Under the pieces are notes generated by a model. The model had not been told where the DNA came from and did no database searches. It was given only the letters and a program-made list of their open reading frames with translations. The position numbers were made by a program, and so were the translations under genes. 64,000 nucleotides of DNA from an uncultured Actinomycetes bacterium (GTDB lineage: Bacteria > Actinomycetota > Thermoleophilia > Gaiellales > Gaiellaceae). Below are positions 19,753-55,000 of the stretch, in pieces. Every line of letters starts with the position of its first letter. Positions within the stretch are counted from its first letter, which is position 1. The stretch covers positions 4,752 to 68,751 of the forward strand of contig CAWCVG010000008.1 of assembly GCA_963798935.1 (NCBI GenBank). The letters are read 5' to 3'.

Positions 19753-19821
19753 AGGGGGCTCCTTTCCAGGTGGCCGACGGTTGCCAGACCGGCGCCGCGC
19801 CGGCCGCGTCGAATCATAATG

Positions 19822-19837: not shown

Positions 19838-19988
19838 GAGTGAACTGAAACGGGTTCCGCGGGCGAGCGCGCGTGACCCGTTAGTGTCTCGCCCGCGGTC
19901 GTCGCACCGAGCGGAGCGAAGGAACAGCCGTCGGCGCGGCGAAGGCGGCAGTTCCGGAGGAGGATCGCATCCCTAGGCGAGCTCTACG

Positions 19989-21962: not shown

Positions 21963-22083
21963 TCGCTCAAAGTATTTGCGGGGACGGCAAAGCCACGATA
22001 AGCCGAAGGTGAGCGTTTTCTTATGAGCCGACCGCCGTGCTCGGCAGGTTTCTGAGCCTGAAACGCGAAAGGCGCAGGCGGCC

Positions 22084-25000
22084 TCAGCCGGCGCTGACGA
22101 ATTGGACGACGAGCTGCGGCGGACTCTGGCCCTTCTCTCTGCTGTGGAACTGCTGCTCTGCGTCCGCGCTCTCGACGGCGTCGCGGATCAGGAAGCCGTG
22201 GTTGGCGCCGTCGCCGACCGTCGCCCGGACATGCGAGGTGACGTCCCATTCGCGGTAGCCGGCGCCGGAGGCGGTCGTCGCCGCCGTGCCAATCGTCGTG
22301 GGCTGGTTGCTCCAGGAGACGCTGTTCTCGGCCCACGCGGCCCCGATCCGCAGCGCTTGCAGCGTGCGGGCCGGCTTCACCGAAGCCGCGTACAGCCTGA
22401 GCACGGCCCTCTCGATCGCGCAGCCCTGCGGCACGACGGGCAGGGGGAAGCGGACGAGTGCGCGGAAGTTGTCACGCGGCCCCTTGGACTGAACCTTCAA
22501 GATCGAGTCGGTCCCCTTGTTCGACGAGGGGCTGTTCTCGTCGATCCACGCATCCGCGGCCGCGGCCAGCGTCGCCGGCGTGGTGCACGTGGGCGTCGGC
22601 GGCGCGATCGTCCAGGTGTGGGTAGCTGGGGAGGCGTCGAGGTTGCCCACCGCGTCCCTGGCGCGGACGCGGAACTGGTGCGAGCCCGTACCGAGTCCCG
22701 TGTACTGGCGTGGAGTCGCGCAGGCCGCGAACGCAGCGCCGTCGAGGGAGCACTCGAACGTCGAGCCGGACTCGCTCGAGGAGAAGCCGAACGACGCGTT
22801 CGTGGAGGTCGTCGTCGCCGGCGGCGCCGGGCCGATCGTCGTGTCGGGCGCGACCGTGTCGATCGTCCAGCCGGCCTGCGCCGGTGTGCCGTCGACGTTC
22901 CCCGCGGCGTCCCTCGCCCTGACCTGGAACTGGTGTGCGCCGTGCGCCAGGCCCGTGTACTGCCGTGGGGATGAGCAGGCGACGAAGGCGGCACCGTCCA
23001 GGGAGCACTCGAAGGTCGAGCCGGATTCGCCGGCGGTGAAGCTGAAGCTCGCGCTCGTGCTCGCCGTGGTGGCAGGCGGGGCGGGGCCCGAGATGGTCGT
23101 CTCCGGCGCGAGCGTGTCGATCCTCCAGCTCACGGTTGCAGGCGTTGCGTCGACGTTGCCGGCCGCGTCGGTCGCGCGGACGCGGAACTGGTGGGTTCCG
23201 TCCGTCAGGCCGGCGTACGTTTGCGGCGAGGAGCAACTCGCGAATGCGCCGCCGTCGAGCGAGCACTGGAACGTCGAGCCGGACTCGCTCGCCGAGAAGC
23301 CGAAGCTCGCGCTCGTGCTCGCCGTGAGCGCAGGCGGGCCGGAGTCGATCGTCGTTTCGGGCGCGAGTGGGTCGATCGTCCAGGTGTAAGCGGCCGGCGT
23401 CTCGTCGACGTTTCCTGCAGCGTCCGTCGCCTGGACGCGGAACTGGTGGCTCCCGCCCGCGAGGCCGGCGTACTCACGCGGGGACTGACAGACGGCGAAG
23501 GCGGCTCCGTCGAGCGAGCACGCGAATGTCGACCCGGTCTTGCTCGACGAGAACGAGAAGCTCGCGCTCGTGCTCGAGGTCAGGGCGGGCGGGACGGAGT
23601 CGATCGTCGTCTCGGGTGCGGTCGTGTCGGGAGGCGGCTCGATCGTCCACGCGTGAGTCGCCGGCGACCCGTCCGTGTTCCCCGCCGGATCGGTGGCGCG
23701 CACACGGAACACGTGCGGGCCGACGGCCAGCGCGGTGTGCTCGCGCGGCGACGTGCAGGCAGTGAACGCACCGTCGTCGAGCGAGCACTCGAATGTCGAG
23801 CCGGGCTCGCTCGAGAAGTGGAAGCTCGCGCTCGTGGCGGTGGTGGTCGCCGCCGGCCCGGAGTCGATCGTCGTCTCGGGCGAAGTCCGGTCGATCGTCC
23901 ATGTATGCGAGGCGGGACTGGCGTCGGCGTTGTCGGCGAGATCGACGGCGCGCACCTCGAACGCGTGCGCGCCCTCGGGCAGGCCGAGGTAGAGCTTCGG
24001 GCTCGAGCAGTCAGCCCACTCGCCGGCGTCGAGGCGGCACTCGAACCGGAGCTGTGCGTCTCCGGTCCGGTCGTCGCTCCCGACGAACGCAAATGTCGCC
24101 GTGTCGTTGTTGTTCGGGTCGGCGGGGCCCTCCGTGATCGAGGTGTCGGGCGGGGCCGTGTCGATCACCCAGAGACGGCTTGCCGGCGTCGGATCGCTGT
24201 TTCCGGCAGCGTCGGTCGCGCGAACGCGGAACTCGTGCGCGCCCGCGACCAGAGGGCCGTACTCGCGCGGTGAGGTGCAGGGCGCGAAGGCCGCCGCGTC
24301 GAGTGAGCACTCGAGCCGCGACCCGGGCTCGCTCCCCGAGAACGCGAAGCTCGCGCTCTGGCTGCTGGTCGGGTCGGCCGGACCGGAGTCGATCGCCGTC
24401 TCTGGCGGCGTAACGTCGATCGTCCACGCGTACGACGCGGGGCTCGGGTCGCTGTTTCCGGCCGCGTCGGTTGCGCGAACCTGGAAGGTGTGGGTGCCGG
24501 GCTCGAGGTCCGCGTAATCCGCGGGCGAGCCGCAGGCCGTGGGCGTCCCGCCGTCGAGGGAGCACGCGAGCCCCGAGCCGGACTCGTCGGACGAGAACTC
24601 GAAGATCGCCGCTGTGCTGTTGGTCGGATCCGACGGCCCCGTCGAGATCGTCGTCTGCGGCGCGGTCTGATCGACCGTCCAGGCGTGGCCTGCGGGCGTC
24701 GCATCGGTGTTCCCGACCGCATCGACGGCGCGCACTGCAAACGTGTGGCGCCCTTCGCCGAGCCCGTCGTAGCTCGAGGGGCTCGTACACGCCGCGAACG
24801 GTGCTCCGTCCAGCGAGCAGACGAACGTCGCCTGCTCGCCGGCGGAGAATGCAAACGTCGCGGATGAGCTGTTGGTCGGGTCCGCGGGGCGGGCGTCGAT
24901 GGAGGTCTCCGGCGGGGTCAGGTCGACCGTCCACACCGCACTCGCAGGCGTCTCGTCGACGTTGCCCGCCCGATCGATCGCGCGCACGTCGAATGTGTGC

Positions 25001-28000
25001 GGCCCCTCGCCGAGATCCAGGTAGCTCTGCGGGCTCGCGCACGCGGCGAACGGTTCGCCGTCCAGCCTGCACTCGAAGCTCGACTCTTCCACGGCCGAGA
25101 AGGCGAAGCTTGCGGAGGTCGAGCTCGTGCTGTCCGGGGGCGCGTCGTCGATCGACGTCTCGGGTGCCGTCAGGTCGATCGTCCAGCGGTGAACGGCCGG
25201 TTCCGGGTCGACGTTTCCGGCCCGATCCACCGCGCGCACCGCCACGCTGTGGGAACCCTCGGCAAGCCCCTCGAAGCGCGCCGGGCTCGAACAGGACCCG
25301 AAGGGACCATCGTCGAGCGCGCAGGCGAAGGCGCTCTCCTCGTCGGCCGAGAAGACGAACTCGGCTGTGGAGCTGTTCGACGGATCCGCCGGACCCGAGT
25401 CGATCGTCGTCTCGGGCGGCGTCAGGTCGACCGTCCACTCCACGCGCGCGGCCACCGGCTCCAGGTTCCCGGCCGTGTCGGTCGCCCGCACCTCGAAGCT
25501 GTGCCGCTCCTTCCGCCAGCCCCTCGTAGCTGGCCGGGCTCGAGCACGCGGCGAACACAGCGCTGTCGAGTCGGCACTCGAAGCTCGCCGCCTCGTCCGC
25601 CGAGAAGACGAAGCTCGCCGATGCGCTCGCCGTCGGGTCGGCGGGCTGCTCGTCGATCGAGCTCTCCGGCGCCGTCAGATCGACCGTCCAGACCGCACGG
25701 GCCGGCGTCTCGTCGACGTTTCCAGCCGGGTCGATCGCCCGTACGTCGAACGTATGCGGACCCTCCCCCAGCGTCTCGTAGCCCTGCGGGCTGGAGCAGG
25801 CGGTGAACGCTGCGCCGTCCAACCGGCACTCGAAGCGGGCCTCTTCTCCGGCCGAGAACTCGAAGGTCGCGGACGTCGCGTTCGTGGGATCGTCGGGGCG
25901 GGCGCCGATCGACGTGTCGGGGGCGGTCAGATCGATCGTCCAGCCGTACACCGCCGGCTGCGCGGTCGGCGTTCCCGGCCCGGTCGATCGCCCGCACCTC
26001 GACCACGTGGCCACCCTCCGCAAGACTCTCGTAGGTCTGCGCCGCCGAGCAGGGGACGAATGGCGCGGCGTCGAGCGAGCACTCGAACGTCGCCTCCTCG
26101 TCCGCCGAGAAGGCGAACTCCGCGGATGAGCTGTTCGACGGGTCCGCCGGAGCCGAGTCGATCGCGATCACGGGTGGAGTCACGTCGATCGTCCAAAGCG
26201 TGAGCGCCGGGGCTCGTCTCCACGTTCCCAGCCGAGTCGATCCCGCGCACCTCGAAGCTATGCCGCCCCTCGTCGAGTAGGTCGTAGGCCGCCGGGCTCT
26301 CGCAGGCGCTGAACTCACCATCGTCGAGCCGGCACTCGAAGCTCGCCGCCTCATCCGCCGAGAAGGCGAAGCTCGCCGCCGTCTTGTTCGTCGGGTCGGC
26401 CGGGCCCGAGTCGATCGCCGTCGCCGGCTCGGTCAGGTCGACCGTCCACGAGTACCGGGCCGGGACCGGGTCGACGTTGCCGGCGGCGTCGATCGCGCGC
26501 ACGTCGAAGACGTGCCCGCCCTCGGCCAGATCCGGTGAGGCTCTCCGGGCTCGCGCACAGCGAGAAGGCTGCATCGTCGAGCCGGCACTCGAAGCTCACG
26601 CCGTCGGCGGCGGAGAACGCGAGGGTCGCCGAGGTGGCGTTGGTCGGGTCGGCCGGTCCCGAGTCGACTGCCGTCTCGGGCGGAGTGAGGTCGATCGTCC
26701 AGCTGTAGGCAGCCGGCTCCGGGTCGACGTTCCCGGCACGGTCGATCGCCCGCACCTCGACGACGTGGCCACCCTCCCCCAGGCTCTCGTAGCTCTGCGC
26801 CGACGAGCAGACGCCGAAGGGCGCGCCGTCGAGCGAGCACTCGAACGTCGCCTCCTCGTCCGCCGAGAACGCGAAGCTGGCCGACGAGCTGTTGGAGGGA
26901 TCCGACGGGCCCGAGTCGACCACGTCGTCCGGCGCCGTCAGGTCGACCGTCCACGCTCGGCTTACGGCCGGGCCGACGTTGCCGGCCCGATCGATCGCCC
27001 GCACCTCGAGGGCGTGGCGGCCGGCGGCGAGTAGGTCGTACCTGATCGGGCTGCCACAGTCGCCCCAGCCGGACGCCGGGTCGTCGAGCCGGCACTGGAA
27101 GCGAAGCTGCGAGAGCTCGTCCAAATTGTCGGAGCCGGCGAAGCTGAGCTCGGCCGACGTCTCGTTCGTCGGATCGACCGGTCCGGAGAGGATCGCGGCC
27201 GCCGGTGCCGTCAAGTCGACCGTCCATTCGTAGGTCGCCGGCGTCGGATCGACGGCGCGGACCTTTCTCGTCGCCCGCACTTCGAGCTCGTGCCCGCCTT
27301 CTGCCAGCCCGTCGAGCGCCGTGCGGCGACGCGCACGCCGCGAACGCCGCACCGTCGAGCGAGCACTCGAAGGCGCGTCGGCGCGGTCGGAGGAGAACAT
27401 GAAGGTCGCCGCGGTCGCGTTCGTCGGCGAGGCCGGCCCGGCGTCGATCGTCGTCTCTGGCGTCGAGTCGTCGAAGACGAGCACGAGCTGCGGGGGATCG
27501 TCCGTCACCTTGTCCCGGCTGTTGATCGTCTGCTCGTCGCCGACGCCGTTCTCGTCCGCGTCGCGGATCAGGAAGCCGTGGTTGGCCGACGTGTACATGT
27601 CCAGGACCTGGTCGACGACAGTCCACTCGAGCGGCCCCTGGGCCGACGGGGATCCCAGCTGCGGGGCCGATCACGGCTGGCTGGTTGCTCCAGGTCACGC
27701 CGGCTTCGCTCCACGCAGAGCCGACCTGCAGCACCTCGAGCGTGCGGCCATCCTTCGCCGCTGTCGCCTCCACGCGAAGGACGGCCGAGGCGATCGCTCG
27801 TGCAGCCGGCGGGCAGGGTCGGGAGCGGGAAGCGGACGAGCGCCCGCGCGTTGGTGCCGATCTGCGACTTCACCTTCAGCGTCGAGTCGTTGCCGAAGTT
27901 GTTCGAGGGGCTGCTCTCGCTGACCCAGCTGTCGCGGTCGGCGGAGAACGCCTGCGGAATCTTCGGGCACGCGCCCGGCGCGGGCGGTGCGTCGGGGTCG

Positions 28001-30852
28001 TCGAAGACGAGGACGAGCTCGGGCGGGCGATCGGCGCCCTTCTCGCGGCTGTGGAACGACTGCGCGCCGGTCTCGTTCTCCGCGCGGTCCCGGATCAGGA
28101 AGCCGTGGTCGCCCGTGCACGTACATGTCGCGCGTCTGCGCGAGAACGTCCCACTCGAGCACGCCGAGGCCCGACTGGGTCGTGGCGGCCGGTCCGGCCG
28201 TCGCGGGCTGGGTCGCCCAGGTGACGCCGAGCTCGGTCCAGTCGGACGAGCACGCGCACGCGCCTCGAGCGTGCGGCCCTCCGTCGCCGCGGAGGCGTGA
28301 AGGCGCAGCGTCGCGGCCACGAGCTTGCAACCCGGCGGCACGGGCGGGAGGGTGAAGTGGACGAGCGCGCGCTCGTTCGTACCGGCCTGCGACTTGACCT
28401 TGAGGATCGAGTCGCTGCCGAAGTTGCGCGTTCGGCGCGCCCTGCGACACCCAGCTGTCGAAGTCGGCGGGCACCGGCCGCTCGGTCAGCCCGGCGCATT
28501 GCTGCTGCCGCCGCCGCCCGGGCGTCAGCTCGGACTCGTAGGCGCCGGCGTCGAAGCGCGTCGAACTGCGGCCGGTCGACGCCGCGCTGATCGACCGGCG
28601 GGCACGGGTCGAGCTCGGTGCAGACGGCCCTCTCCTGGGCCGGACTTCCGGCAAGCAGGGCGTGCGTCTGGGTCGGACCGCCGTTGTCGGCGAGCGGGCC
28701 GAGGCGGGGATCGGTGCCCGGCTGGTCGCTCAGCTCGCTGAGCTGGCAGGTGTTGGCGTTCTCCACGTTGCCGCCGAGCGAGGTGATCGTGCCGGCGCAG
28801 TTGCCGCCGGCCGGGTTGTTCGCGACGATCGTGTTGGCGAGGAACACAGTCCCGTCGCCGACGAGATCGCCGCCGCCGTTGTTGATGCCGCCGCCGGACG
28901 CGGCGAGGTTGTTCGTGACGGTGCTGTTCCGCATCGTCAGCCGCGAGGAGATGAGCACCCCGCCGCCGAACTGGCTCGCCCGGTTGCCCGAGACCGTCGT
29001 GTTCTCGAGCGTCGCCTCACCGTCGCCGTCGCGTGAGGACGCCGCCGCCGCTCTCGGCCGAGTTGCCCGACAGCGTGCTGCGGGTGACCTCGAGCGGCGC
29101 GTCGCCCACGTGGTGGATCGCGCCGCCGACAGCGGCCGTGTTGCCGCTGATCGACGTCGTCGTGATCGCGAGCGGGCCGTCGCCGCGGCTGTCGATGCCG
29201 CCCCCGTCGCCGCTTCGACTTGTTGTCGCGGATGCGCGAGTCCTCGACCGCGGCCGACTCGCCGACTGCCATCGCCTTGTCGCCGTGCGTACGAGATGCC
29301 GCCGCCGCCTTCCAGCGCAGAGTCGGAGACGTTGCCGACGACGTCGATATTGAGCATGCGGACGGCGCCGGACTGGACGAGGATGCCGCCGCCCTCCTCC
29401 TCCGCGTGGTTCGCGGAGAAGCGCGTGCCGGTGATCGTCACCTGGCCGCCGCCCTCGTTGCTGAACCCGCCGCCGCCTCGAGCCTTGTTCTCCGTGAACG
29501 AGCCGCCGGTGATCACGACCTCGCCGCCGGAGTTGGAGTGCATGCCGCCGCCTTCGCCGCTGGCAAGCGAGGCGGTGACGAGCGCGGGGTTCTTCGTGAA
29601 CGTCGAGTTCTCGACCGTGACGAGGCCGGTCCCCTCGTTGGCGAACCCGCCGCCGGTGACGGCGGAGTTCTCGCTGAACGTGCTGTTCAGGATCGTGACG
29701 CCGCCCTGGTTGCCGTTGAGCATGGCGCCGCCGAGGCCCTCGGCGCTGTTCTTCGAGAAGGTGCTGTCGAGCACGGCGATGGTGCCGCCGGTGGCCGCGA
29801 TGGCGCCGCCGTCCTTCGCCGCGTTCTCCGAGAACGTGCTGTCGGTGAGGTGACGCTGCCGGTCCCGTTGAAGATCGCGCCGCCGTCGGAGCTCGAAACG
29901 TTCTTGGAGAAGCTCGACCCGTCGACGGCCAGGATGCCACCGCCGTCGTTCGAGATGCCGGCGCCGTTGCGCCCGCCGCCGGCGTGATTGTCCGAGATCT
30001 GCGAGTCGGTGACGGTGATCGACCCGATGGCGTCGAGCTCGGCGTTGTTGGCGATCGCGCCGGCTCCCCTGAGGGTCTCGTCGAGCCCGACCACGCTCGC
30101 CGAGTTCCCCGAGATGCTGCTGTTCGCGACGCGTCAGCGTGCCGTCGCGGTTGTTGTTGATCGCGCTCCCGCTCTCGCCGGCGTAGTTCCCCGAGACCGT
30201 CGACTCGGAGACGGCCACCGCCCCGCCGATGTGGTTGTCGATCGCGCCACCGGTCTTGCCGGCGACGTTGCCCGTGAGCACGGCGGCGGTGACGATGACG
30301 GCCGCCGTGCTGTTGTTCATGATCGCTCCGCCGTACTCCGCGGCGTAGCCGTCGCTGACGGTGAGGTCGGAGAAGCTCACATCGCCGCCGTCGACGAGGA
30401 CTTCGAAGATGCGGTCGAGCCCCCGCACGTCCGGGGGAGCGCCGGCCGGCGGCGATGCCGCCGTCGACGAACGTCGAGCCGGCTCCGGCCCCGCGGATCG
30501 CGAGGCTATCGGTGATGTCGAGGTCGCCGGTCGTGATGTCGTTCTGGTTCAGGGGCGGAATCGCGAGCGCGTACGTGCCGGCCGGGACCACGATCACGTC
30601 GGCCCCGGGAATCGCGTTCGCCTCCTGGATCGCGGCCCGCAGCGTGCACACCCCGGCGGTCGTCCGGCACAGCCCGTCGCCGACGCCGGCGTCGAGCGCG
30701 TCGGCCGTGCTGTTTACCTGGAAGTTGAGGCCGGCGGCGCCTGCCACCCCCGCCGCCTTGAGGCCGAGGAGGGCGGCGAGGGCGAGGATGCAGGCGACCG
30801 CCACGAGCCTGGGACCACGTGAAGCGATCCACCGCAGGAGGCGTGTCCGCAT
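22084..30852 (-). CDS. giant modular secreted protein, gene B (about 2,900 codons), interrupted by at least about 17 single-nt frame breaks upstream of 25491 as assembled
   Basis: ATG 30852 opens MRTRLLRWIASRGPRLVAVACILALAALLGLKAAGVAGAAG (signal peptide). Homologous protein sequence can be followed through ORFs 29017..30852, 28095..30428, 29687..30094, 28937..29272, 27695..28654, 27568..28341, 26433..27773, 26351..27598, 25927..26574, 25422..26354, 24011..26023 and the intact 22084..25491. The gene ends ...PPQLVVQFVSAG*. No stop-plus-restart with a signal peptide occurs in between. Confidence 0.8.
22087..22587 (-). other. gene B C-terminal DNRLRE-like module
   Basis: Sequence is CTTPATLAAAADAWIDENSPSSNKGTDSILKVQSKGPRDNFRALVRFPLPVVPQGCAIERAVLRLYAAS...AAWAENSVSWSNQPTT...GYREWDVTSHV...NHGFLIRDAVESADAEQQFHSREKGQSPPQLVVQFVSAG*. 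Confidence 0.7.
22588..27466 (-). repeat. gene B: 19 tandem copies of an approximately 84-aa (252-270 nt) two-cysteine Ig-like repeat
   Basis: Consensus is T(V/I)D.T.P.T.I.SGP.DPTN..SA.F.FS..E....F.C.LDG..F..C.SP..Y..L..G.H.F.VRA.D.AGN.D.TPA...W. I counted 8 repeats in 25492-27466 and 11 in the intact ORF 22084..25491. The plus-strand core CACTCGAA recurs at 22751, 23006, 23264, 23519 and 23786 (some copies with one mismatch), giving a period of 255-267 nt. Confidence 0.85.
27467..28500 (-). other. gene B: two tandem internal DNRLRE-like modules
   Basis: Module 1 (about 27997-28500): DFDSWVSQGAPNA/NFGSDSILKVKSQAGTNERALVHFTLPPVPPGCKLVAATLRLHA...GVTWATQPAT...GDHGFLIRDRAENETGAQSFHSREKGADRPPELVLVFDD. 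Module 2 (about 27467-27969): CPKIPQAFSADRDSWVSESSPSNNFGNDSTLKVKSQIGTNARALVRFPLPTLPAGC...GVTWSNQPAV...NHGFLIRDADENGVGDEQTINSRDKVTDDPPQLVLVFDD. Both contain frame breaks. Confidence 0.65.
28560..28850 (-). other. gene B choice-of-anchor-Q-like region
   Basis: Sequence is ANTIVANNPAGGNCAGTITSLGGNVENANTCQLSELSDQPGTDPRLGPLADNGGPTQTHALLAGSPAQE...DQRGVDRPQ. Confidence 0.6.
28851..30447 (-). repeat. gene B Pmp-like beta-helix repeats (alternating FSxN and GGAI/GGG motifs)
   Basis: Example stretch: STFSENAAKDGGAIAATGGTIAVLDSTFSKNSAEGLGGAMLNGNQGGVTILNSTFSENSAVTGGGFANEGTGLVTVENSTFTKN...GGGMHSNSGGEVVITGGSFTENKARGGGGFSNEGGGQVTITGTRFSANHAEEEGGGILV. Several frame breaks occur inside. Confidence 0.7.
30448..30852 (-). 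other. gene B signal peptide plus CSLREA-type N-terminal domain
   Basis: Sequence is FQVNSTADALDAGVGDGLCRTTAGVCTLRAAIQEANAIPGADVIVVPAGTYALAIPPLNQNDITTGDLDITDSLAIRGAGAGSTFVDGG. The C(T/S)LR(A/E)AIxEAN motif and layout match the CSLREA N-terminal family as remembered. Confidence 0.7.
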
Positions 30853-30932
30853 CGCACATTCGAGGATAGGACCGGTTGATGAGAGGCCGGCACAAACGTG
30901 ATGAGAGGCCCGTCAGGTCCCGATGAGAAGGC
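30853..30932 (-). promoter_or_regulatory. candidate activator-dependent promoter of gene B: three direct repeats at exact 22-bp spacing plus a -10-like TATCCT 10 nt before the ATG
   Basis: On the plus strand, TGATGAGAGGCC lies at 30877-30888, TGATGAGAGGCC at 30899-30910 and CGATGAGAAGGC at 30921-30932. The identical GATGAGA core lies at 30878, 30900 and 30922. The minus-strand TATCCT is the complement of 30863-30868. No good -35 hexamer is present. Confidence 0.45.
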
Positions 30933-31035
30933 GTTTACGTATCCGGGCCGATACCGCTCGGCGGCTCGTACACGGCGACGTCCTTGCCCGCCGCTCGTGC
31001 GCCGGCGGTGGGCGGTGGCCGGCGTCGGCCGGTGC

Positions 31036-34000
31036 TCAGTCGTACTGGATGACGAGCTGCGGCGGGTTGTCCGTGAGCTTCTCGCGGCTGTGGAAGGCCT
31101 GATCCATGCCGCCGGCGTTCTCGGTCGCGTCGCGGATCAGGAAGCCGTGGTTGAAGCCGCCCGGCGCGTACATCGCCTGGGTCTGGCTCGTGATCGTCCA
31201 CTCGCGGTAGCCGAAGCCCGACGTGGTCGTCACGCCCGTGCCCGACGTGGCGGGCTGGTTGCCCCAGGTCACGAGGTTCTCCGTCCACGCCGCTGCGAGC
31301 GGGATGGCCCGCAGCGTGCGCCCGTCCTTGTACGACGAGGCGTACAGGCGGAGCTTCGCGCTGACGACGTCGCAGCCGGCCGGGAGCGTCGGGAGGGCGA
31401 AGCGGACCAGCGCCCTCGCGTTGCTGCTCGACTTCGAATCGACCTTCAGGACCGAGTCCCCGCCGTTGTTCTTCGCCGCGTCGCTCTGCAGCACCCAGCT
31501 GTCCGCCACCGAGGTCACGGTCACCGAGCCGGCGGTGCAGTTCGAGATGTTGGCCGTCCAGCTGCGTGTCGCGGACGACTGGTCGGGGTTGCCGGCCGCG
31601 TCGATCGCGCGGACGCGGAACGTGTGCGGGCCTGCCGTGAGGCCGCTCAGGTGGCGCGGCGACGAGCACGCGGCCCATGGGGCGTTGTCGAGTGAGCACT
31701 CGAATGTCGCCGCCGGGTCGTCCGCGGAGAACGTGAACGTCTCCGTGCTGCTCGTCGTCGTCCCAGACGGGCCGTTGTTGATCGTCGTCTCCGGCGGGAC
31801 GAGGTCGACCGTCCAGGTGTACGTCGCCGGGCTCGGATCCGCCCTGTCGGCGAAGTCGATCGCCCGCACCTGGAACGTGTGCGAGCCGTGCGCGAGCGTC
31901 GGTGTAGCTCTTCGGGCTCGCGCACGCAGCGAACACGCCCAGGTCGAGCTTGCACTCGTAGCGGAGCTGCGACGCCGGCGTCGAGTCGTCGGTGCCGGTG
32001 AACGTGAAGCTCGGCGAGTGCGTCGGGCTCGGGTTCGTTCGGCTTGGTCAGGATGCCCGTGTCCGGCGGTGCGAGGTCCGGAGCCAGCTCGACCGTCCAC
32101 GAGCGAGCCGCCGGCGTGGCGTCGACGTTGCCGGCCGCGTCCTTCGCCCGGGCCTTCAGCGTGTGTGCGCCCACGCTCAGGCTCGAGTACGTCTTCGGCG
32201 AGGCGCAGGGGCTGAACGCTGCGTCGTCGAGCGAGCACTCGAAGGTCGCGGCGGCCTCGTTCGAGGAGAACGTGAACGCCGCGGTGGTGCTGAGCACGGT
32301 TCCGGACGGGCCGCTCTCGATTGTCGTCGCCGGAGGCCTCGTGTCCGGCGCGGCGAAGCGGATCACGAGCTCCGGCCGGTTCATCGGGGCCTCGCGGCTG
32401 GCGATCTGCTGCTCCGAGCCGCCGTTGTTGTCACCAGCGTCCCTGATCAGGAAGCCGTTGTTCACGCTCGCGTACATCGCGAGCACCTGAGCAGACACGT
32501 TCCACTCGCGCCAGCCCGGCGTCGCGCCCGCACCGAGGCCCGACATCGTCGTCACGGGCTCACCGGCCGTCAGCGGCTGGTTGTCCCACGTGACGCCACC
32601 CTCGCCCCAGGTGCCCGCGACGCGCCACGCCTCGAGAGCACGGTCGGTGATCAGCGAGTTCAGGTGCAGGCGCATCGTCGCCGACTCGACCGCGCAGCCT
32701 GCCGGCAGCGCCGGGAGGTTGAAGCGGACGAGAGAGCGGGCGTTGTTCGCCGGGCCCTTGGAGATGACCTTGATGGTCGAGTCGCCACCCTTGTTGGTGA
32801 GCGGCGCGGCCTGGTCGATCCAGGCGTCCGCGCCGGCGCCGACGGTCTGCTGCGTTCCGCAGCTCATGGCCGAGCCCGAAGCGGCGGCGTAGCTGTAGAC
32901 CATCTGCGGCTGGTTGTCCGACTTCTCCCGGCTGTGGAGCTGCTGCTCGGAGCCGCCGTTGCCCTCGGCCGCGTCGCGGATCAGGAAGCCGTTGCTCGCG
33001 CCGGCCGCCACCTGCGTCGTGACGTCCCAGGAGCGGTGACCCTGCCCGGAGTCGGTGGTGGCCGCCGTGCCGCTCGTCGCCGGCTGGTTGCTCCAGTTGA
33101 CGCCGCTCTCCGTCCAGGTCGCGGCCAGCGGCAGAGCCTGGATCGTCCGGCCGGCGGAGTGCCCGCCCGCGTAGAGGCGCAGCGTCGCCGACTGCAGGAC
33201 GCAGCCGGAGGGCACCGTCGGCGCCGGGAAGCGGACGAGCGCGCGGCTGTCCTCGCCGGACTTCGACATCACCTTCAGCACCGAGTCGCCGCCGTGGTTG
33301 TTCGACGGGCTCTTCAGCTCGATCCAGGCGTCCGCGTCGGCGCCGACCGTCTGCACCGAGGTGCAGTCCGGCGCCACGACCGACCACGTCCACGTGGCGG
33401 GCGTCGGGTCGGCGTTCCCCGCCTGGTCGACCGCGCGGACGTCGAACGAGTACGGAGCGCCCTGAGCCAGTCCTGTGTACGTCCTCGGGCTGGTGCAGGC
33501 CGTGAACTCCGTGTCGCCGTCGAATCGGCACTCGTACCGGAGGTCGGCTACCGCATCGAGGTTGTCGCTGCCGGTGAACGTGAGCGTCGCCGACGAGAGC
33601 GTGCTCGGATTCGACGGCTTCCCGGTGATGGACGTCTCCGGCGGTGTCCCGTCGGTGATCGTCCAGCTGTAGCTGTCCGCCGACGGATCGACGTTGCCCG
33701 CGCCGTCGATCGCCCGCACCTGGAACGTGTGCGGCCCGGACGCGAGCGCCGTGTAGGTCATCGGCGACTCGCAGTCGGCGAACGGCGCGGCGTCGAGCGA
33801 GCACTCGAACGCCGAGTCGATCTCGTTCGCGTTGAACGTGAACGTCGCGCTCGTGGCCGTCGTCGAGCTCTGCGGCGTCGTCGAGGATCGTCGTGTTCGG
33901 CGGCACCGCGACCGTCCACGTGTACTCGACCGGCGTCTCGTCAGCGAGGCCGTACGGCTGGAGCTTCGCGGCGACGGTGAGCGTGTGCTCGCCGTCCTCG

Positions 34001-46000: not shown

Positions 46001-49000
46001 TCATGTCGAGGACGCCGAACGGGCGTCACCGCGCGGACCTCGAGGATGTGCTCGCCGTCGGTCAGCCCGGTCAGCGTCGTACGGGTTGGCGCACGGCAGC
46101 GAACGGGCCGAGGTCGAGCGCGCACTCGAAGGTCGAGCCGCTGACGGTCGAGGAGAAGACGAAGTGTCGCGGTGCGCGCCGTTGATCTCGCCCTCGGGCC
46201 CGATGTCGATGAAGGTCTCCGGCGCCTCGACGATGGTGAAGTAGCCAGCGCGCCGGCGTCGGGTCGACGTTGACCGTCGGGTCGTTCGGGTCGATGAGCA
46301 CGGCGCGCACGCGGAAGATGTGCGTGGCCGAGCGCGAGGCCCGGAGTACTGGGACGGGGTCTCGCACTCGTCGAACGCCTCGCCGTCGATCGCGCACTCG
46401 AACGTCGCGCGCGGGTCGTTGGCGGTGAACGCGAACGGCGACGGTGGCGTCGCCGCCGGCCTCCGGGTCGATGCCGCCGGTCACGGCGGGCGGGCCGTCG
46501 GTGATCTCGTGTCGAGGCCGGTCGTGTCGATGACCGTCCACTCCTAGGTCGACGACCGGCGCGTCGACCGCGAGCCTCCTCGCCCTCGAGCACGCTGGAC
46601 CTCGAACTCGTGCGGGCCGAGCGGCAGGCCGTTGTAGGCCTTCGGCGAGCATGCACGGCGAGAACTCGCCGCCGTCGAGCGAGCACTCGTAAGATCGACG
46701 GTCCGTGCCCTCGGCGGAGAACTCGAAGCGGGCGCTGCGGTCGCTGGTCGTCAGGTCCGGGCCGGACGTGATCAGCACCGGCCGGCGGGATCGCCGCCGA
46801 TCTCCCAGCTCCACTCGGCCGGGGTCGGGTCGACGTTGCCGGCGGCGTCCACGGCGCGGACGAGGAGCTCGTGCTCGCCGAAGAGCGAGGTCGGTGTAGG
46901 ACGTACGCGGGCGCGCACGGCAGGAAGAACAGGTTCTCGACCGCCTCGTCGAGCGCGCACTCGAACCTGACGCCGGGCAGGTTGGAGGCGAAGACGAAGG
47001 TCGCGCGTCGTGCTCTCGGTGACCTCCTCCGGCCCGGAGTTGATCGAACGTGTCGGGCGGCGGGCCGACGCGTCCAGCGGTAGACCGCCGGCGTCGGGTC
47101 GACGTTGCCGAGCGCGTCGACGGCGCGGACGCGGCAGCTCGTGCGTGCCCGGGCAGCAGGTCGAGGAACTCGGCGGACTCGCGGCAGCACGGACCGAACG
47201 CGACGCCGTCGAGCGAGCACTCGAAGCTCGGCCAGCGGCTCGTTCGACGGAGAAGTCGAAGATGCGCGATCGGGCTCAGCGTCTGCGTCGGCGGGCCGGA
47301 GTCGATCGTCGTCTCCGGCGGGAGGTCGACCGTCCACTCGTGCATCGCCGGCGACTGGTCCGGGATGCCGATCGGCGCCGCGCGCGCGGACCTGGAAGCG
47401 TGTGCTCGCCCTCGGCGAGGCTCGGTGTAGGTCAGCGGCGACGCGCACGGCGTGAACGGCGCCAGGTCGAGCGAGCACTGGAAGGTCGCGCCGGCCTGGT
47501 CGGCGGAGAACGTGAACGTCGCGGTCGTCGACGTGCTCGGGTCGAGCGGAGCCGAGATGATCGTCGTCTCGGGCAGCGTCGACGTCCGTCGGGCAGCGCG
47601 ACCGTCCACTCGAAGTCGCCGGCGGCTCCTCGACGTGCAGGAACCTGTTCGTCGACTGCACCTCGAAGGTGTGGTCGCCGACGTGCAGCGTCGCGTGACC
47701 GTCACCGGCGACGTGCACGGCGCGAACTCGGCGCCGTCGAAGCGAGCACATGTACGTCACGCCGGTCTGGTCGGCCGTCCAGCTCGAACGTCGCGCTCGT
47801 GCTGGTCGTGGTCGTCGTGCCGGCGTGTTCGCGGGCACGTCGGCGGTGATCGTCGTCAGCGCCGGCCCGAGCGACGTCCAGGTGAACTCCACCGGCGTCG
47901 CGTCGACGTTCAGGCTCGGGTCGACGGCGCGCACGAGCAGCGTGTGCTGGCCGGCCTCGAGGCCGCTGAACTCGTGCCGTGTTGTCGGGCGGCGAGGCGC
48001 ACGCGCTGCACACCGGCGGCAGCGCGACCGGGTCGAGCGCGCACTCGAAGCGTCGACGCCGGGCTCGTTGCTGGCGAAGGTGAAGATCGACGGCAGGTCG
48101 ACGTTCGATCTCGGCCGGCGGCGCCGGCGCGATCGTCGTGTCGGGCGCGCGTATCGTCGTCGACCGTCCACTCCCAGATCGCCGGCACCGGCTCGGCGAG
48201 CAGGTGCAGCTTGTCGGCCGTGACCTCGAGCGTGTGCGCGCCGGCGGCAGTGCCCGGTCGCGAGCGCCAGGTCGGCCTCGGTGTACGTCACCGGCGACTC
48301 GCAGAAGTCGAGCAGGCCGCCGTCGAGCGAGCACTGGAGCGCGTGCGCGTCGGGGTCGTCGACGGTGAACGTGAACGTCGCGCTCGTGTCGTTCGTGGCC
48401 GGCGGCGGGCCCGGTGTGGATCGTCACGACCGGCGGCGTGACGTCGCCGCTCGCCCAGCTCGCAGACCGGCCGGCTCGAGGTCGACGGCGCCCATCGGGC
48501 CCTTCGCGCGCACCTCGAGCTCGTGCTCGCCGAGCGGCACGCGTGAGCGTGTACGGGTTCGGGCAGGGCTCGAACGTGCGCCGAGGTCGAGCGAGCACTC
48601 GAACGTCGCGCCGGCGGCCGGGTCGGCGGCGAAGGTGAACGTCGCCGTCGTGGTCGCCGGTCTCGGCTCCGGGCCCGGTGAGGATCGTCGTCTCCGGCCC
48701 GGCCTCGGTCGTGAAGCGGTGCTCGGCCGGCGTCGGGTCGACGTTCTCGAACTCGTCCACGGCGCGGACGCGCAGCACGTGCTCGCCGCCCGGCAGCTCC
48801 TCGAGCGGGAGGTAGTGGAACGGCGTGTCGCAGCCCTCCCACGGGCCGCCGTCGAGCGAGCACTCGAACTCGAGCTCGAACCAGGCGGTCCGTTGTCGGT
48901 GCCGCGCGAGCTCGAAGCGCAGGTGTCGGGCTCGATCAGGTCGGTCGGGCCGAGGTGCACGACCGACACGATCGTCGTGTCGGGCGGCTCGACGTCCTGG

Positions 49001-52000
49001 ACCTCCCACTCCCGACTCGGCCGGCGTCCTGGTCCTGACCGCGCTCGCCGTCGAGGTAGCGGAACTAGTTCACCGCGTAGACCTCGAACTCGTGCGTTGT
49101 CCTGCGATCAGCGGCCCGGCGATGAACGGCGAGGTGCACGGCGTCGGGCAGCGAGCCGTCGACCGAGCACATGAAGGTCACGTCCGCCTGGTCGGAGTCG
49201 AACGTGAACGTCGCGCTCGCGCGCGCCGCTGATCTCGGGCGGGCCGGAGGTGATCGATCGTCTCGGGCTCGCCGACGACGGTCCAGGTGTGGCTGCGCCG
49301 GCGTCGGGTCGACGTTCTCGAGAGGTCGATCGCGCGCGCCTCGAGCGTGTGCTGGCCGGCGGTCAGGCCGGTCGAGCTCGAGCACGGCGACTCGCAGCCC
49401 GCGAACTGCTCGCCGTCGAGCGAGCACTCGAACTCCTCGACGCAGCTCGTTGCTCTGGAAGCCGAAGATCACGTCCGGGCCGGAGACGCGTCCGGCGGCG
49501 TGCGACGATGAACGTGTCCGGCGGGTCGGTGTCGAGCGGCGGGATGACCAGCCACTCGTACGAGCTCGGGCGTCGAGTCGACGACGCCGGTCGGGCTCGA
49601 CCGCGCGCACCTGGAAGACGTGCGGGCCGATCGTCGAGGCCCTCGACCGTGTGCGGCGTGGTGCACGGCGTGAAGTCGGCGCCGTCGAGCGAGCACTCGA
49701 AGTCGAAGACGGGCGTGCCCGTGTCGAAGTCCTCGCCGAGGAACTCGAACATCGCGATCGTGCCCTCGGTCTCCTCCTCCGGGCCGAGCTCGATCGACGT
49801 GTCGGGCGCGTTGAGGTCGACGTAGGTCCACGTGCGCTTCGCCGGCGTCGGGTCGACGTTGCCCATCTCGTCGATCGCGCGGACCTGCGACCGTGTGCTG
49901 GCCGTACGCGCCCTCCTCGACCTCGACCTCGTAGGGCACGCCCGGCACGCCCGGCGTGGCCAGGATCGGAGGAGCAGGAGCCGAGCAGGACGCCGTCGAG
50001 CAGGCACTCGAACTCGAGGTCGAGGTCGATCGTCTGGTCGTCGATGCCGGTGAACTCGACAGCACGATCTGGTTCGCCGTCAGACGCTCGGCGGGCCCTT
50101 GACGATCCGCGTGTCGGGCGGCGTCGTGTCGAGCGGCGAGCGCGACCTCCCACTCGTAGAGCGTGGGCACGCATCTGCGGCGAGCTCGCCGAGCGGGCTC
50201 GATCGCCTGGACCTCGAACTTGTGGCTCGCCGGTCTCGAGCTGCGTGTAGGTCACCGGCGACTCGCACAGCGTGAACGGCAGGCCGTCGAGCGAGCACTG
50301 CAGCATCGCGCCGGGCACGTCCGACGGCGAAGGTGAACGTCGCGCGTGCTCGTCTCGGTGAGGAGGTCGGGCCCGGTCGAGGATCGTCGCGAGCGGCGCC
50401 ATCGTCGGAGCCGTGCGGCGAGCGCGAAGAGGCCGAAGTCCTCGGGCTCGGCGCAGACCAGGCCGGCGATCGGAGTCGTTCCTGAGCGTGATGTCGGTCC
50501 ACTCGCTGCCGTCGTACTCGAGCAGGCGGGCGGGGCCCTCGGCGTAGTCGGCCGGGTCGTACGGCAGGCAGAGCGCTGACGGGCTCGCCGTACTCGGCGG
50601 TCGTGTGGATGTCGAAGAAGCGGCCGCGCCGCCGTAGCCGGGCAGCGTCGATCGGCGGGCCGCCGTCGAGCTCGTCGAGCGCGGTCGCGCCGGCGATGCT
50701 GACCTCGAAGAAGTGAGCGTCGCGTCGCCGGCGCCGCCGGCGATCGGCAGCGTCGACGCTCGACGTTGTTCCCGACCGGCGTGTTCGGCGCGGCCGCGCA
50801 CGACCGTCCAGCGGTAGCTCCGCCGGGGTCGGGTCGACGTTCTCGGCACGTCGACGGCGCGCGACGTGCAGGACGTGCTCGCCGGCGAGCAGGTCCTCGA
50901 AGACCGCGCCGGCGACTCGCAGCCGCCGAAGCCCTCGAAGTCGAGCGAGCACTCGATCGTCGCGGTCGCCCTCGTTCGAGGCGAAGCCGAAGTACGCGTT
51001 CGGGCTGGCGGTCGTCGCGCGCGGCCCGTACGTGATCGCCGTGTCGGGCGGCGTCGTGTCGACGACGGTCCACTCGTAGTGACCGACGACCGGCTCGTAG
51101 AGCGGCTCGAGCGGCTCGCCGTCGGATGTCGAGGAACGGTCGGGTGGGTGCGCGTAGACCTCGAACTCGTGCTCGCCCGGCGGCCAGGCCGCGGGATCGT
51201 CGAACGGCGACGTGCACGGGCCGGGTCGCCGCCGTCGAGCGAGCACACGAAGAAGACGTCGCCGCTCGGTCGGGAGCGGTCAGCGCGAACTCGAACGTGG
51301 CCGACTGGTTCTCGCTCTCGATGTCGGGGCCGGAGTCGATGATCGTGAGCGGCGGCGTCACGTCGCCGATCTCGCCACTCGTACTCGACCCACTGCTCCT
51401 CCCAGATCGCCGTCCGGGTCCTGCGCGAGGACGGCGAACACGTGCTCGCCGAGCGGCGAGGTCCGGTGTACGTCTCTCCGGCGAGCTGCAGTTCTCGTCG
51501 AGCACGCCGTCGAGCCAGCACCAGTAGGTCGAGCCGGGCGTGTCGGCCGCGAACGTGAACGTGGCGCTCGTGCTCTCGGTGATCTCGTCCGGCGGGCCGG
51601 AGAGGATGGTCGTGACCGGCGGCGGCTTGACGTCCCACTCGTAGCGCGCCGGCGTCGGGTCGCAGTTGCCCGCGGCGTCGCGCGCGCGGACGAGCAGCAC
51701 GTGCGTGCCGCGCGTGAGGTCGGAGAACTCGATCCGGCGAGTGCAGGAGCTGTACGCCGTGCCGTCGAGCGCGCACTGGAACGTCAGCGGCGCCGACGCG
51801 GTTGTCGCGTGCCGGTGAACTCGAACGTCGCGACCGCTCCTGCGTGACCGCGCGGCGGCCCGGTGAGGATCCGCGTGTTCGGCGGCGATCATGTCGGGCC
51901 CGAGCTCGACGTCCCACTCGTAGAGCGACCGGCGGCTCCTCGACGACGCCCTCGGGGTTGGTCGCGCGGACCTGGAACTCGTGCTCGCCGTCCTCGACCG

Positions 52001-55000
52001 TGAAGAAGCACCGGCGACGGCACGAGACGCACGGTCGCCCGAATTCGGCCGCCGTCGTAGCGAGCACTCGAACGTCGAGCCGGGCTGGTCGGCCGCGAAC
52101 GCGAAGACCGCGTGTCTCGCTCGTTGCTGACGAGACGCCCTCGGCGTTCGAGCGTGCCGGGCCGGCGTGATCGTCGTCACGGCGGCGGCACGACCGTGAA
52201 CGTGCGGACCTCGGCCGGCGTCGGGTCGACGTTCAGCGCGAGGTCGATCGCCGGATGCGAAGGTGTGCTGGCCCGGCCTCGAGGCCCTCGCATGGACTCG
52301 GGCGACTCGCACGGCTCCCACGGGTCGACGTCGAGCTGGCACTCGAACGTCGAGCTCGAGCATCCGGCGTCGCGTTGTCGGTGCCGTGAAGGCGACGTCC
52401 AGGAACTCGAACTCGGACTCCGGGATGACCGGGATCTCGGATCGGCGGGTTCTCGAGCCGATCTCGCCGGCGGCCGGTGAGTGATCGCCGGTGCTGGGCG
52501 GCGTCGTGTCCGCCGTCATCGTCCACGTGTAGGTCGGCCGGCGTCGGGTCGACGTTGCCCTCGAAGTTCGGGTTCGGCTGCTCGGGTTCTCGAACGCGGC
52601 TCGGCCATGTCGATCGCGCGCACCTCGAACGTGTGCTGGCCCGGCGCCATCTGCGGGTCCTCGTAGGTGTAGAGGTCGAGCAGGTTGAACGGGCTCGTGC
52701 ACTCCTCCCAGTCGAGCTCGTTGGTGCTGTCGATGCGGCACTCGAACGTGAGCAGCTCGCGGCGGCGTCAGGTCGTCGGTGCCGGTGAACTCGAAGATCG
52801 TCGAGCTCGAGCTCGGGCGCGGGCGCACGCTCGATCGTCAGGTCTCCGGCGGCGTGATGTCGCTGCGCGTCGACGATCTCCCACTCGTACTCGGACGGCC
52901 TCGACCTGCTCGACGCCGTCGGCGTCGGTGCGCGATGACGCGCAGCATGTGGTCGCCGGGCGAGCAGGCTCTCGTACGTGACCGGCGGCGTGCACGGCAC
53001 GAACGGCTCGAGGTCGAGCGAGCACTCGAAGGTCGCGTCGGCGACGTTGGCCTCGAAGTCGATGATCGCGGTCGTGCTCAGCGTCTCGCCGCCGGTGGCC
53101 GGGTCGAGCGGCGTCTCGGGCGGCGTGAAGCCCGTCGACTCGGGATGCGGCCCGGGCAGGAAGATCGTGTGCGACGCCGAGCAGGCTCCAGGTGTAGGTC
53201 GCCGGCTCGCCGACGTTGCCCTCGAAGTCGATCGCGCGCACGAGAACGTGTGCGGGCCGACCTCGGTCTCGTCGAGGCCCCACTCGAAGCCGCCGCGGTT
53301 CATGTGCTGCGCAGCCTCGAACCCGCACGGCTCGTACGGCCAGAAGTCGACCTTGCACTCGAAGGTGACGTCGGGCTCGTTGGAGTGGAACGTGAAGATG
53401 CGCGTCCGTGCAGCCACGTCTCGGCCTGCGGCTTCAGGTCGATGATCGCCTCGGGCGGCGTCGCCGGCCGGCAGCGGCTGGTACGCCCACATGAACTTCG
53501 CGGGCGTCGAGTCGGCCAGGCCGGCTCCGTTCAGGTCGATCGCGCGCACCTCGAAGGTGTGGACGCCGGGCGAGAGGTTGAGGATCTCCGCCGGGTACTC
53601 GCAGTCCTCCCACGCGAGCGGGTCGTGTGCTGTCGATGCGGCACTCGAACACGAGCTCGTGGATGGGCGTGACGTTGTCGCTGCCCATGTAGGTGAAGCT
53701 CGCGTTCCGGCTGTCGCTGGGGTTGGCCGGATGGTCGACGATCCACGTCTCCGGCTCGCCCGGAACGGCCCCGGTCGTGCAGATGACGCTGTAGCACTGC
53801 TCGAACTCGGCGTTGCCGGCGGCGAAGTTGCCGCCGCGGTCGATCGCGCCGATGGCGGCGTAGATGCCCCAGCCGCCGTTCACGCGGGCGCTGTTGTCCT
53901 TGACGATGTGGCCGGCGCCCTCGATGCGAGATGCCGTCGCCGCCGTTGCGCGTCGGCGTTGTTGCCCTCGAGCCAGTTGCCCTGGCCGAGCGGGCGCGGA
54001 GTCGGCGATCTCGATGCCCTCGCCGCCGTTCTCGTGCGCCGTCGTTGTCGATGACCTCGTTCCGGAACGACAGCTCGCCGATCTCGATGCCGATGCCGAG
54101 CGTGCCGCTGGCGTTGTTGCCCTCGATGCGGTTGTCGTACGACTCGCCGAGCTCGATGCCGCTCTTGGCGCCGCGGAGGTCGTTGGCGCTTGATGAGCGT
54201 TGTCGTGCGCCAGCTCCATCGAGACGCCGGCCGCGAGGACGTCGCGGATGCGGTTGTGGATGACGGCGACGCTCGACGACTCGACGATCAGGACGCCGCC
54301 GGCGCCTTCCTCGATCGTGTTGTCCTCGATGTGGACCCGGTTCGTCGGCAGGAGCTCCTCGCCGAGCGTGATGCCGCCGCCGTGGTTCTCGGTCATCGTG
54401 TTGTTGACGATGCGGTGGTCGGAGCCGCCGATGGAGCCGATGGCGTTACCGCCCGAGGTGGCGATCTCGTTCTCCTCGATGCGCGCGCCTGTCGCGTGCT
54501 CGAGGTAGATGCCGTCCTGGGAGCTCAGGGCGAACTCGTTGTGGCGGATGATCGCGTTCTTCGTGCCGCTGTACATGGCGATGCCGTAGCCGTTCGAGAC
54601 CAGCGTGTTCCGCTCGATGATGTTGCCCAGGCCGTTCTGGTCGGCGTCGGCGAGCCCGATGCCGCCCTCCTGGTTCAGCTCCAGCCGCAGGTCGCGCACG
54701 ATGTTCGACCCCGTGCCCGGGTTGAGCATGACGCCGTAGTCGAACTCGTGGACCGTCGCCGTTCATGATCGTGACGTTGTCGAAGCCCATGTTCGTGATG
54801 CCGCCGCCCAGGCCGACGCCGTCGATCGTGTGCCCGTTCAGGTCGAGCGTGATGCTGCCGGTACCGATGACGAGAGCGTTGTCCGGGCACTCGAGCAGGT
54901 CGTTCATCACCTTGACGCTCTCGAGCAGCACCTCGCCGCAGACGACCTCGCGGGCGACCGGAGCCGGGCGCACGCGCCAGATGTGGGTCGCCGTCGCCTC

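Follow-up and report, generated by a model that had tools for sequence, protein, structure and literature searches.

The window analysed here is a 64,000-nt stretch of contig CAWCVG010000008.1 (G000:C8:4752-68751) from the metagenome-assembled genome (MAG) of an uncultured Gaiellaceae bacterium (3.13 Mb, 36 contigs, 69% GC, 79% completeness). It contains a very long array of a repeat of ∼84 amino acids (aa) with two conserved cysteines. The array probably belongs to two adjacent and really intact genes of this high-GC soil actinobacterium, gene A and its tandem paralogue gene B, each of which would encode a giant secreted modular protein with a stalk of immunoglobulin (Ig)-like domains and with CBM96 modules, that is, a glycan-binding fibre of the cell surface or the matrix. 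All coding of interest lies on the minus strand. An earlier note on this DNA, made from the letters alone, had described about 100 copies of the repeat and had not recognised its family.

In the uncorrected DNA, no single long open reading frame (ORF) spans the array, and the longest open stretches reach ∼1,000–1,250 codons, with changing frames. When a repeat profile built from frame-intact copies was searched over all minus-strand frames, whole or partial copies appeared in all three of them between 22.6 and 60.2 kb, with adjacent parts of one copy often lying in different frames. Only the 22.1–25.5 kb portion of the array is in one frame; the sequence termed P0001 (window 22087–25674, minus strand, a single intact frame of 1196 aa) holds 11 clean repeat copies and the C-terminal domain. 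The coding frame was traced with a codon-bias dynamic programme in which 1-nt shifts were allowed. On this corrected reading, the profile search counted 100 copies, 81 in gene A and 19 in gene B, which is far beyond chance and agrees with the number given earlier. Of these copies, 92 start within 22588–53775, the extent originally assigned to the array, and the array itself continues to 60184. The spacing between copies clusters at 249–267 nt, close to the 255–267 nt proposed before, and the median full-length copy has 84 aa.

Conservation over the 100 copies is 100% for P2, 99% for C34, 95% for D37, 91% for C44 and 97% for W80, and the VRAxDxAGNxDxTPA motif is retained. The two conserved cysteines per repeat that had been claimed are confirmed: exactly two cysteines are present in 73 of the 100 copies, and both are invariant among the 25 frame-intact copies. 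A search for C-x-[LVIF]-D-G gave 48 matches on the minus strand, spread over its three frames, and a single one on the plus strand; the reading often turns to nonsense within a few residues of a match. The long variant of the repeat that had been noticed was recovered as well, its motifs G[ST]D[ND] and [YF][EQ]C[RK][LFI]D being present in 12 and 18 copies, respectively. At the DNA level, the octamer CACTCGAA, which is the reverse complement of F-E-C codons, occurs 65 times on the plus strand. Among the core positions listed for it earlier, the octamer is exact at 22751, 23006 and 23786, and a variant core (FQC and FAC) is found in the in-register copies at 23264 and 23519.

The copies are more diverged than the 40–70% identity that had been estimated by eye, with a median pairwise identity of 40%, a 5–95% range of 28–53% and a maximum of 77%. 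The last four copies of gene B are indeed more alike, as had been stated (mean identity 70% versus 54% for the other gene B copies), and at the 3′ end of this gene the most similar copies are nearest neighbours. This closer likeness fits the more recent local expansion that had been proposed for the C-terminal copies. A super-repeat of three copies (757 nt) with 73–77% identity lies at 25.1–27 kb of gene B. For gene A, plotting identity against distance, the test recommended in the earlier note for super-repeats, gave a mean that is flat with copy lag and no global peak, whereas a best-match analysis brought out old super-repeats of 17–22 copies (4.6–6.2 kb) which tie together the regions at 34.6–38.3, 40.8–44 and 46–48.4 kb (51–64% identity, where the background is 39%).

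The family of the repeat can be recognised: it is a two-Cys subgroup of bacterial Ig-like domains and is widespread. P0001 matches Pfam PF19077 (Big_13) with 148.3 bits (E = 1e-43, 7 stretches, cut-off 27) and NCBIfam NF047446 (OmpL47-type domain) with 210.3 bits (12 stretches, cut-off 40). A third model, NF033510 (Ca_tandemer, cut-off 50), gives 110 bits through profile positions 61–95 of 96 only. The array as a whole is thus above the Big_13 and NF047446 cut-offs, but single copies stay under both, for Big_13 just so: the best of them reaches 26.9 bits with Big_13 (11 of 25 at E ≤ 0.01), and with NF047446, to which 19 of 25 align at E ≤ 0.01, the copy with a recorded score has 26.8 bits over positions 21–61 of 68. 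The Big_13 alignment is confined to profile positions 69–102 of 102 and so covers only part of the model. The aligned part corresponds to the G-x-H-x-F-x-V-R-A-x-D-x-A-G-N strands, and the N-terminal two thirds of the repeat, with the Cys pair, lie outside it. No end-to-end model for the repeat was present in the Pfam and NCBIfam copies searched, and a literature search found no paper describing its two-Cys form.

Structure prediction places the repeat among Ig-like/FN3-like (E-set type) beta-sandwiches. AlphaFold2 (AF2) modelled one repeat, from the 25-copy alignment, as seven strands with a predicted local distance difference test score (pLDDT) of 95.9. Three consecutive repeats were modelled with the same pLDDT (95.9) and a predicted template modelling score (pTM) of 0.78, and this model suggests a defined rod-like arrangement. 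The best Foldseek matches in the PDB were the BIg domain of SiiE (2yn3), the Y_Y_Y domain of BT4663 (4a2m), PKD-like domains of ColH/ColG and FN3-like modules of CbhA, with TM-scores of 0.65–0.72 and a probability of 1.00. The beta-sandwich with paired cysteines that the earlier note had put forward for checking is what the models contain, the two cysteines lying on adjacent antiparallel strands in all three modelled copies. A profile search of PDB sequences gave weak, motif-level matches to titin FN3 (E = 1.5e-4) and SiiE (5e-3). The nearest clusters in the ESM Atlas are ‘Ig-like domain-containing proteins’, with Big_13 in 70–92% of their members. In a database listing restricted to proteins of 1,000–2,100 aa, at least 5970 matched at E ≤ 1e-10, under generic names such as Ig-like domain protein (Solirubrobacter), DNRLRE domain-containing protein (Gaiellaceae MAGs), AgmC (Archangium), MYXO-CTERM protein and parallel beta-helix repeat protein. 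PF27332 is also listed on many of the homologues; it is a minor co-match, named TP_0781 in the ESM Atlas.

An orthologue of gene A was found in a genome of the same genus (G007:C1:384862-416877; hereafter the G007 orthologue). It is an uninterrupted frame of 10,672 codons that is colinear with gene A, 87% identical to it at the nucleotide level and endowed with 81 repeat copies, and at both the N- and the C-terminus the two are nearly identical. Gene B aligns end-to-end with L001, an independent ENA contig orthologous to it (92.6% identity), and in the corrected frame the differences are twice as frequent at third codon positions as at the first and second. The proteins of genes A and B share a common layout: a signal-peptide-like segment, a CSLREA domain, a GGAI-rich PMP-like beta-helix region and a choice-of-anchor Q domain, with a CBM96 module at the very C-terminus (Table 1). 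In gene A, the beta-helix modules are followed by the long Ig-like array, two CBM96 modules, three more repeats and the terminal CBM96. Across both genes, six to seven full-length matches to PF24517/NF033679 (E from 1e-14 to 3.5e-54) identify the CBM96 modules as members of that family. The start of gene A is ambiguous (TTG at 63173 or ATG at 63155) and the frame remains open further upstream, so the true start may lie there and add possible membrane-spanning segments before the signal-peptide-like segment; the stop is at 31036–31038. Between 63173 and 63330 on the minus strand, upstream of both candidate starts, hydrophobic segments are encoded that are conserved at the aa level in G007.

With their signal-peptide-like N-termini, the proteins look exported, as had been claimed, and we infer a Sec-type signal peptide as the route by which each giant protein would leave the cell. 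The stalk (81 domains in gene A, 19 in gene B) would then act as a stiff spacer that is resistant to proteases and force. SiiE provides a value of ∼3.5–4 nm per domain, from which a length of roughly 0.3 µm follows for the gene A stalk, i.e. a few hundred nm. With such a spacer, the glycan-binding CBM96 modules and perhaps also beta-helix modules that cleave glycans would be kept at a distance from the cell, so that it could attach to polysaccharide in soil, on the surfaces of plants or microbes, or within its own matrix. The repeat anatomy, the fold, the family matches, the order of the domains and an intact orthologue are what the analysis shows; export, the disulfide, the spacer/adhesin role and the ligand are inferred. 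The founding member of CBM96 is the alginate-binding beta-sandwich module carried by Dp0100, an alginate lyase with several domains, from Defluviitalea phaphyphila (PMC9971899), and a ∼200-aa DNRLRE domain was named, in cell-surface proteins, by Adindla et al. 2004 (PMC2447325).

Several points weigh against two intact genes for secreted, disulfide-bearing fibres. Export is predicted from signal peptides that were identified by eye. The proteins of genes A and B showed neither an LPXTG motif nor any other anchor to the cell wall, so each could be a surface fibre or equally a matrix protein that is released. The role of the beta-helix modules may be structural or adhesive only, and not catalytic. 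The distance between the two cysteines of a repeat is taken from the strand register of the model and not from coordinates. Finally, in the comparison with the G007 orthologue, the excess of insertions and deletions (indels) is local to the giant genes (∼1.8% in 38–54 kb versus <0.05% in the flank), and in this dense zone first and second codon positions differ more from G007 than elsewhere (13.7%/11.6% versus 9.9%/7.3%).

The main functional rival is that the beta-helices are mainly catalytic: the genes would be intact, and the protein would chiefly be a giant multi-catalytic polysaccharide-degrading enzyme in which NosD/PbH1-type beta-helices are active lyases or hydrolases, CBM96 targets the substrate and the Ig-like array is only a linker, and not an adhesin or a matrix fibre. 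Gene A does encode four beta-helix regions, CBM96 was defined in a multidomain alginate lyase (PMC9971899), some database relatives are named ‘parallel beta-helix repeat protein’, and GH1, GH5-like, ATP-binding cassette (ABC) sugar-uptake and LacI genes are found in the window at 9.6–19.8 kb. However, the beta-helix modules matched only the generic models Beta_helix, NosD and Chlam_PMP, and none of the polysaccharide-lyase or glycoside-hydrolase families; known modular carbohydrate-active enzymes use far fewer spacer domains than 81; and the sugar-utilisation block is missing at the G007 locus, so it is not tied to the gene. We therefore regard an enzyme as unlikely and continue with a glycan-binding fibre.

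Whether the genes are intact depends on the origin of the frame breaks. The codon-bias trace contains 229 shifts, none of them in 22.1–25.5 kb, about one per 80 nt in 38–54 kb and few elsewhere. Aligned with the G007 orthologue, the window shows 338 frame-shifting gaps, of which 253 are a single extra base in the window, and for 197 of 206 predicted shifts a gap of this kind is found no more than 12 nt away. When the frame is projected from G007, only 2 in-frame stops are left in 10,558 codons, both at predicted shift sites. In gene B, the extra bases of the window are missing from L001 at practically all predicted shifts, and L001 shows 1-nt gaps that are private to it. Soil-metagenome contigs from four independent runs, which cover 37–55 kb, point the same way: 10 of the 12 best-supported indels are ≤5 nt from predicted shifts and in the restoring direction, although these contigs are short, come from many related organisms and show frame-restoring forms elsewhere, not the state of the source strain. 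Only about 0.1 of the sampled words occurred in the sequencing runs. The extra bases are 84% G or C, and 77% of them are outside any homopolymer run; we thus read them as assembly artefacts and not as gene decay. The frame breaks are very likely consensus or polishing errors concentrated in the repeat array.

In 38–54 kb, AT-to-GC changes relative to G007 outnumber GC-to-AT changes by 821 to 434, compared with 577 to 447 in the rest of gene A, and this GC-directed excess looks like biased consensus error. It would account for the raised number of differences at the first two codon positions, which we attribute to GC-biased miscalls, and is the opposite of what mutational decay produces. The first/second-position excess in the dense zone persists when 3–15 nt around each gap are masked. 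A third orthologue that would polarise the changes was sought among 39 genomes of the genus, which gave paralogue-level matches only. Simple nanopore homopolymer error does not describe the pattern, since neither shift sites nor extra bases are enriched in runs; an artefact is still favoured. A test for a consensus that keeps both alleles asked whether the extra base is the one that G007 has at a neighbouring mismatch, and in 0 of 253 cases it was; the test is uninformative, as G007 does not co-exist with the source strain.

If the frame breaks were real, gene A and part of gene B would be a decaying pseudogene in the source strain and the repeats would be relics. The confinement of frame-shifting gaps to the giant genes, next to a 5.6-kb flank with 8 gaps only, would agree with this. 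Relaxed selection would also match the raised first- and second-position differences in the dense zone, where third positions are unchanged, and an orthologue in only 2 of the 39 genomes of the genus means that the gene is either dispensable or often unassembled. Natural bacterial indels, however, favour deletions and homopolymer slippage, and here insertions outnumber deletions by 253 to 42 and 77% of the extra bases lie outside homopolymer runs. In addition, ∼296 indels stand against ∼2250 substitutions in 16 kb without any large deletion, the projected frame is nearly free of stops, the substitution bias runs towards GC, and the corrected copies still have the key residues C34, C44 and W80. 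The private 1-nt gaps in gene B differ between L001 and the window, and compensated shifts are found outside the repeat genes as well: in the flank (11940–12100, minus strand), the C-terminal part of an Opp/Dpp-type ABC ATPase loses the frame for ∼50 codons before regaining it, a compensated triple shift of 1-nt steps. Decay is thus very unlikely, and we retain intact genes damaged in the assembly. Accordingly, this contig should be used with caution: with ∼340 frame-shifting errors concentrated in the repeat array, automated calls yield dozens of fragments, and calling them a pseudogene would be wrong. G007 contains a second long array of the two-Cys repeat (G007:C4:59400-73300), with open frames of 365–1751 codons, which represents either broken frames or several genes.

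The two cysteines occupy positions 34/44, 119/129 and 205/215 of the three-repeat model. They are located on the two strands of one hairpin (31–36/42–44, 116–121/127–129 and 202–207/213–215) and are register partners on the adjacent antiparallel strands C and C′ in the AF2 models. In the 120 best homologues, 1740 of 1784 repeat copies (97.5%) have both cysteines, 21 have neither and only ∼5 have one; such both-or-neither loss is predicted for a structural disulfide. One intradomain C34–C44 disulfide per domain, formed after export, is therefore most likely, as judged from the models. Elsewhere in the same genome, a VKOR gene and a gene for a DsbA-like thioredoxin-fold protein are side by side (G000:C32:212581-213467). 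VKOR/DsbA-like proteins are the usual oxidative-folding system of actinobacteria, and this pair could form the domain disulfides. It is highly improbable that the cysteines instead serve as a metal site or cross-link the fibres through bonds between domains or between molecules: this would be compatible with a Cys–Cys distance known from strand register only and with the Ca2+-stabilised, disulfide-free nature of the Ca_tandemer-type adhesin repeats weakly matched here (110 bits), but two thiols alone are a poor metal site, and both the opposed hairpin positions in all modelled copies and the paired pattern of loss speak for a bond within the domain.

Table 1. Coordinates of the repeat genes, their modules and associated features in the window (window positions).
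Feature	Position	Strand	Basis
Gene A, ∼32 kb, product ∼10,700 aa	31036..63173	-	ORF ends and G007 orthologue
CSLREA domain, gene A, after signal-peptide-like segment ending AFA	62811..62927	-	TIGR04214, 27.9 bits
N-terminal right-handed beta-helix, gene A	61167..61454	-	PF13229 8e-11 and Chlam_PMP
Choice-of-anchor Q domain, gene A	60405-60560	-	NF041518 2e-20
81 Ig-like two-Cys copies, gene A, interrupted by beta-helix and CBM96 modules, most split between frames	31549..60184	-	Profile search on corrected frame
CBM96 (DNRLRE), N-terminal region of gene A	59206..59742	-	PF24517 1.5e-14
NosD-like beta-helix module 1, gene A	58497..58907	-	PF13229 7e-16, PF05048 4e-9
NosD-like beta-helix module 2, gene A, split by frame break near 56067	55618..56365	-	PF13229 and PF05048, two frames
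NosD-like beta-helix module 3, gene A	54211..54705	-	PF13229 3e-20, PF05048 6e-13
Dense frame-break zone, 31–43 frame-shifting gaps per 2 kb versus G007 orthologue	38000..54000	.	G007 alignment and codon-bias trace
Two tandem CBM96, near gene A C-terminus, lower bound approximate	32400..33353	-	PF24517 3.5e-54, two stretches
C-terminal CBM96, gene A	31042..31524	-	PF24517 2.6e-29, 102.6 bits, positions 3–164 of 164
Gene B, 8.8 kb, tandem paralogue, ∼2,920 aa; ATG 30852, stop 22084–22086	22084..30852	-	ORFs and L001
CSLREA domain, gene B, after signal-peptide-like N-terminus	30616..30723	-	TIGR04214, 30.9 bits
Choice-of-anchor Q domain, gene B	28560-28712	-	NF041518
Two CBM96, gene B, upstream of repeat array, frame-broken, approximate bounds	27500..28485	-	PF24517 two frames; 7e-44, two stretches in L001
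19 Ig-like two-Cys copies, gene B; eleven copies in 22606–25416 share one intact frame	22606..27460	-	Profile search
C-terminal CBM96, gene B	22102..22575	-	PF24517 5e-29, 101.6 bits; NF033679 1e-29
Gene for a parvulin peptidyl-prolyl isomerase (SurA/PrsA-like), immediately downstream of gene B; called ORF 20979–21962	20982..22187 (stop-to-stop)	-	SurA_N_3 8.5e-16, Rotamase_3 3.4e-22

In G007, the peptidyl-prolyl isomerase gene directly follows the gene A orthologue and is itself followed by the orthologue of window 3968–9585. The isomerase could assist folding of the adjacent giant proteins, and may be a dedicated extracytoplasmic foldase for their proline-rich repeats. The same G007 locus (G007:C1:416878-425000) is without gene B (22084–30852) and without the GH1/ABC transporter/GH5-like/LacI block (9586–19871), so both of them, the tandem paralogue as well as the sugar block, are insertions that vary within the genus. 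As a taxonomic marker the GH1 gene was uninformative, with a best match of 63% to an uncultured actinomycete MAG, and the Gaiellales assignment reached in the analysis comes only from the names of gene B homologues. Among other genes of the source MAG, rpoB and rpoC were not found at its 79% completeness, so at least one core region is unassembled.

A wider reading of the repeat can be offered tentatively, and we consider it possible though doubtful. The two-Cys ∼84-aa module would be a distinct, unnamed Ig-like family that current models catch by its last two strands only. It would be stapled by a cross-strand C-C′ disulfide and would be the characteristic block of giant CSLREA/beta-helix/CBM96 fibre proteins (up to ∼10,700 aa) in soil Actinomycetota (Gaiellales, Solirubrobacterales) and Myxococcota, with a dedicated PrsA/SurA-like foldase encoded beside the giant gene. 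If this is true, abundant uncultured soil lineages make surface or matrix fibres of ∼0.3 µm that owe their mechanical stability to ∼80 disulfides and not to Ca2+ as in the giant adhesins of Gram-negative bacteria. The two-Cys Ig-like module is in any case very common yet half covered by models, and with a profile made for it, thousands of proteins now called ‘hypothetical’ or ‘large repetitive’ would be better annotated. For the window itself, the scientific weight is modest: it documents a giant predicted glycan-binding fibre protein (∼10,700 aa) together with its paralogue of 2,900 aa, from an actinobacterial lineage that is abundant in soil but poorly known.

When the repeat is compared with the two models that recognise the array, it is apparent that Big_13 and NF047446, the latter named after the Leptospira surface protein OmpL47, share with it the G-x-H/Y-x-F/L-x-V-x-A-x-D-x-A-G-N motif of strands F and G and an Ig-like beta-sandwich. 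The difference lies in the F-x-C-x-L-D-G...C-x-S-P hairpin with the Cys pair, which is specific to the two-Cys subgroup and outside the Big_13 match. At the level of whole proteins, both products belong to the CSLREA large repetitive proteins, as each CSLREA domain scores above the TIGR04214 cut-off of 25 bits. The closest database relatives (Solirubrobacter soli, Solirubrobacter sp., Gaiellaceae MAGs and Archangium AgmC) have the same two-Cys repeat with 40–65% identity over 80–96% of P0001, and many share CBM96 and Beta_helix/NosD domains. The relatives listed are 1,000–2,100 aa long, which is the length range admitted by the search, and the gene A product is ∼5 times longer. A literature search found no described repeat function behind the names of these relatives, nor a relevant paper on AgmC (‘adventurous gliding motility protein AgmC’). 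The CBM96 module of Dp0100 is matched here by full-length hits to PF24517/NF033679, a likeness at the level of the family models, and the module is carried on a giant non-lyase scaffold.

The nearest analogues in overall design are giant adhesins of Gram-negative bacteria such as SiiE (Salmonella enterica, 53 BIg domains, 2yn3), MpIBP and LapA, in which a long tandem rod of ∼90-aa bacterial Ig-like domains bears binding modules at its ends, as proposed here. SiiE is the best structural match of the repeat (Foldseek E = 8e-4, query TM-score (TMq) 0.70) and a weak profile match through the F-G motif, with a sequence identity of ∼22%. Adhesins of this type use type I secretion with repeats-in-toxin (RTX) or C-terminal signals and have Ca2+-stabilised interfaces. 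The giant proteins of the window differ in their predicted N-terminal Sec-type signal peptide, their C-terminal CBM96 and a probably monoderm host; no RTX or type I secretion signal was seen in them, the N-terminus being signal-peptide-like and the C-terminus a CBM96 module. They also have the Cys pair in place of a demonstrated Ca2+ site, and one disulfide per domain may replace the Ca2+ rigidification of other giant adhesins, which is a testable idea. In summary, we propose that the proteins of genes A and B work like giant Ig-repeat adhesins without being members of that group, and that they extend the known kinds of large repetitive proteins as giant glycan-binding fibres of the cell surface or matrix.

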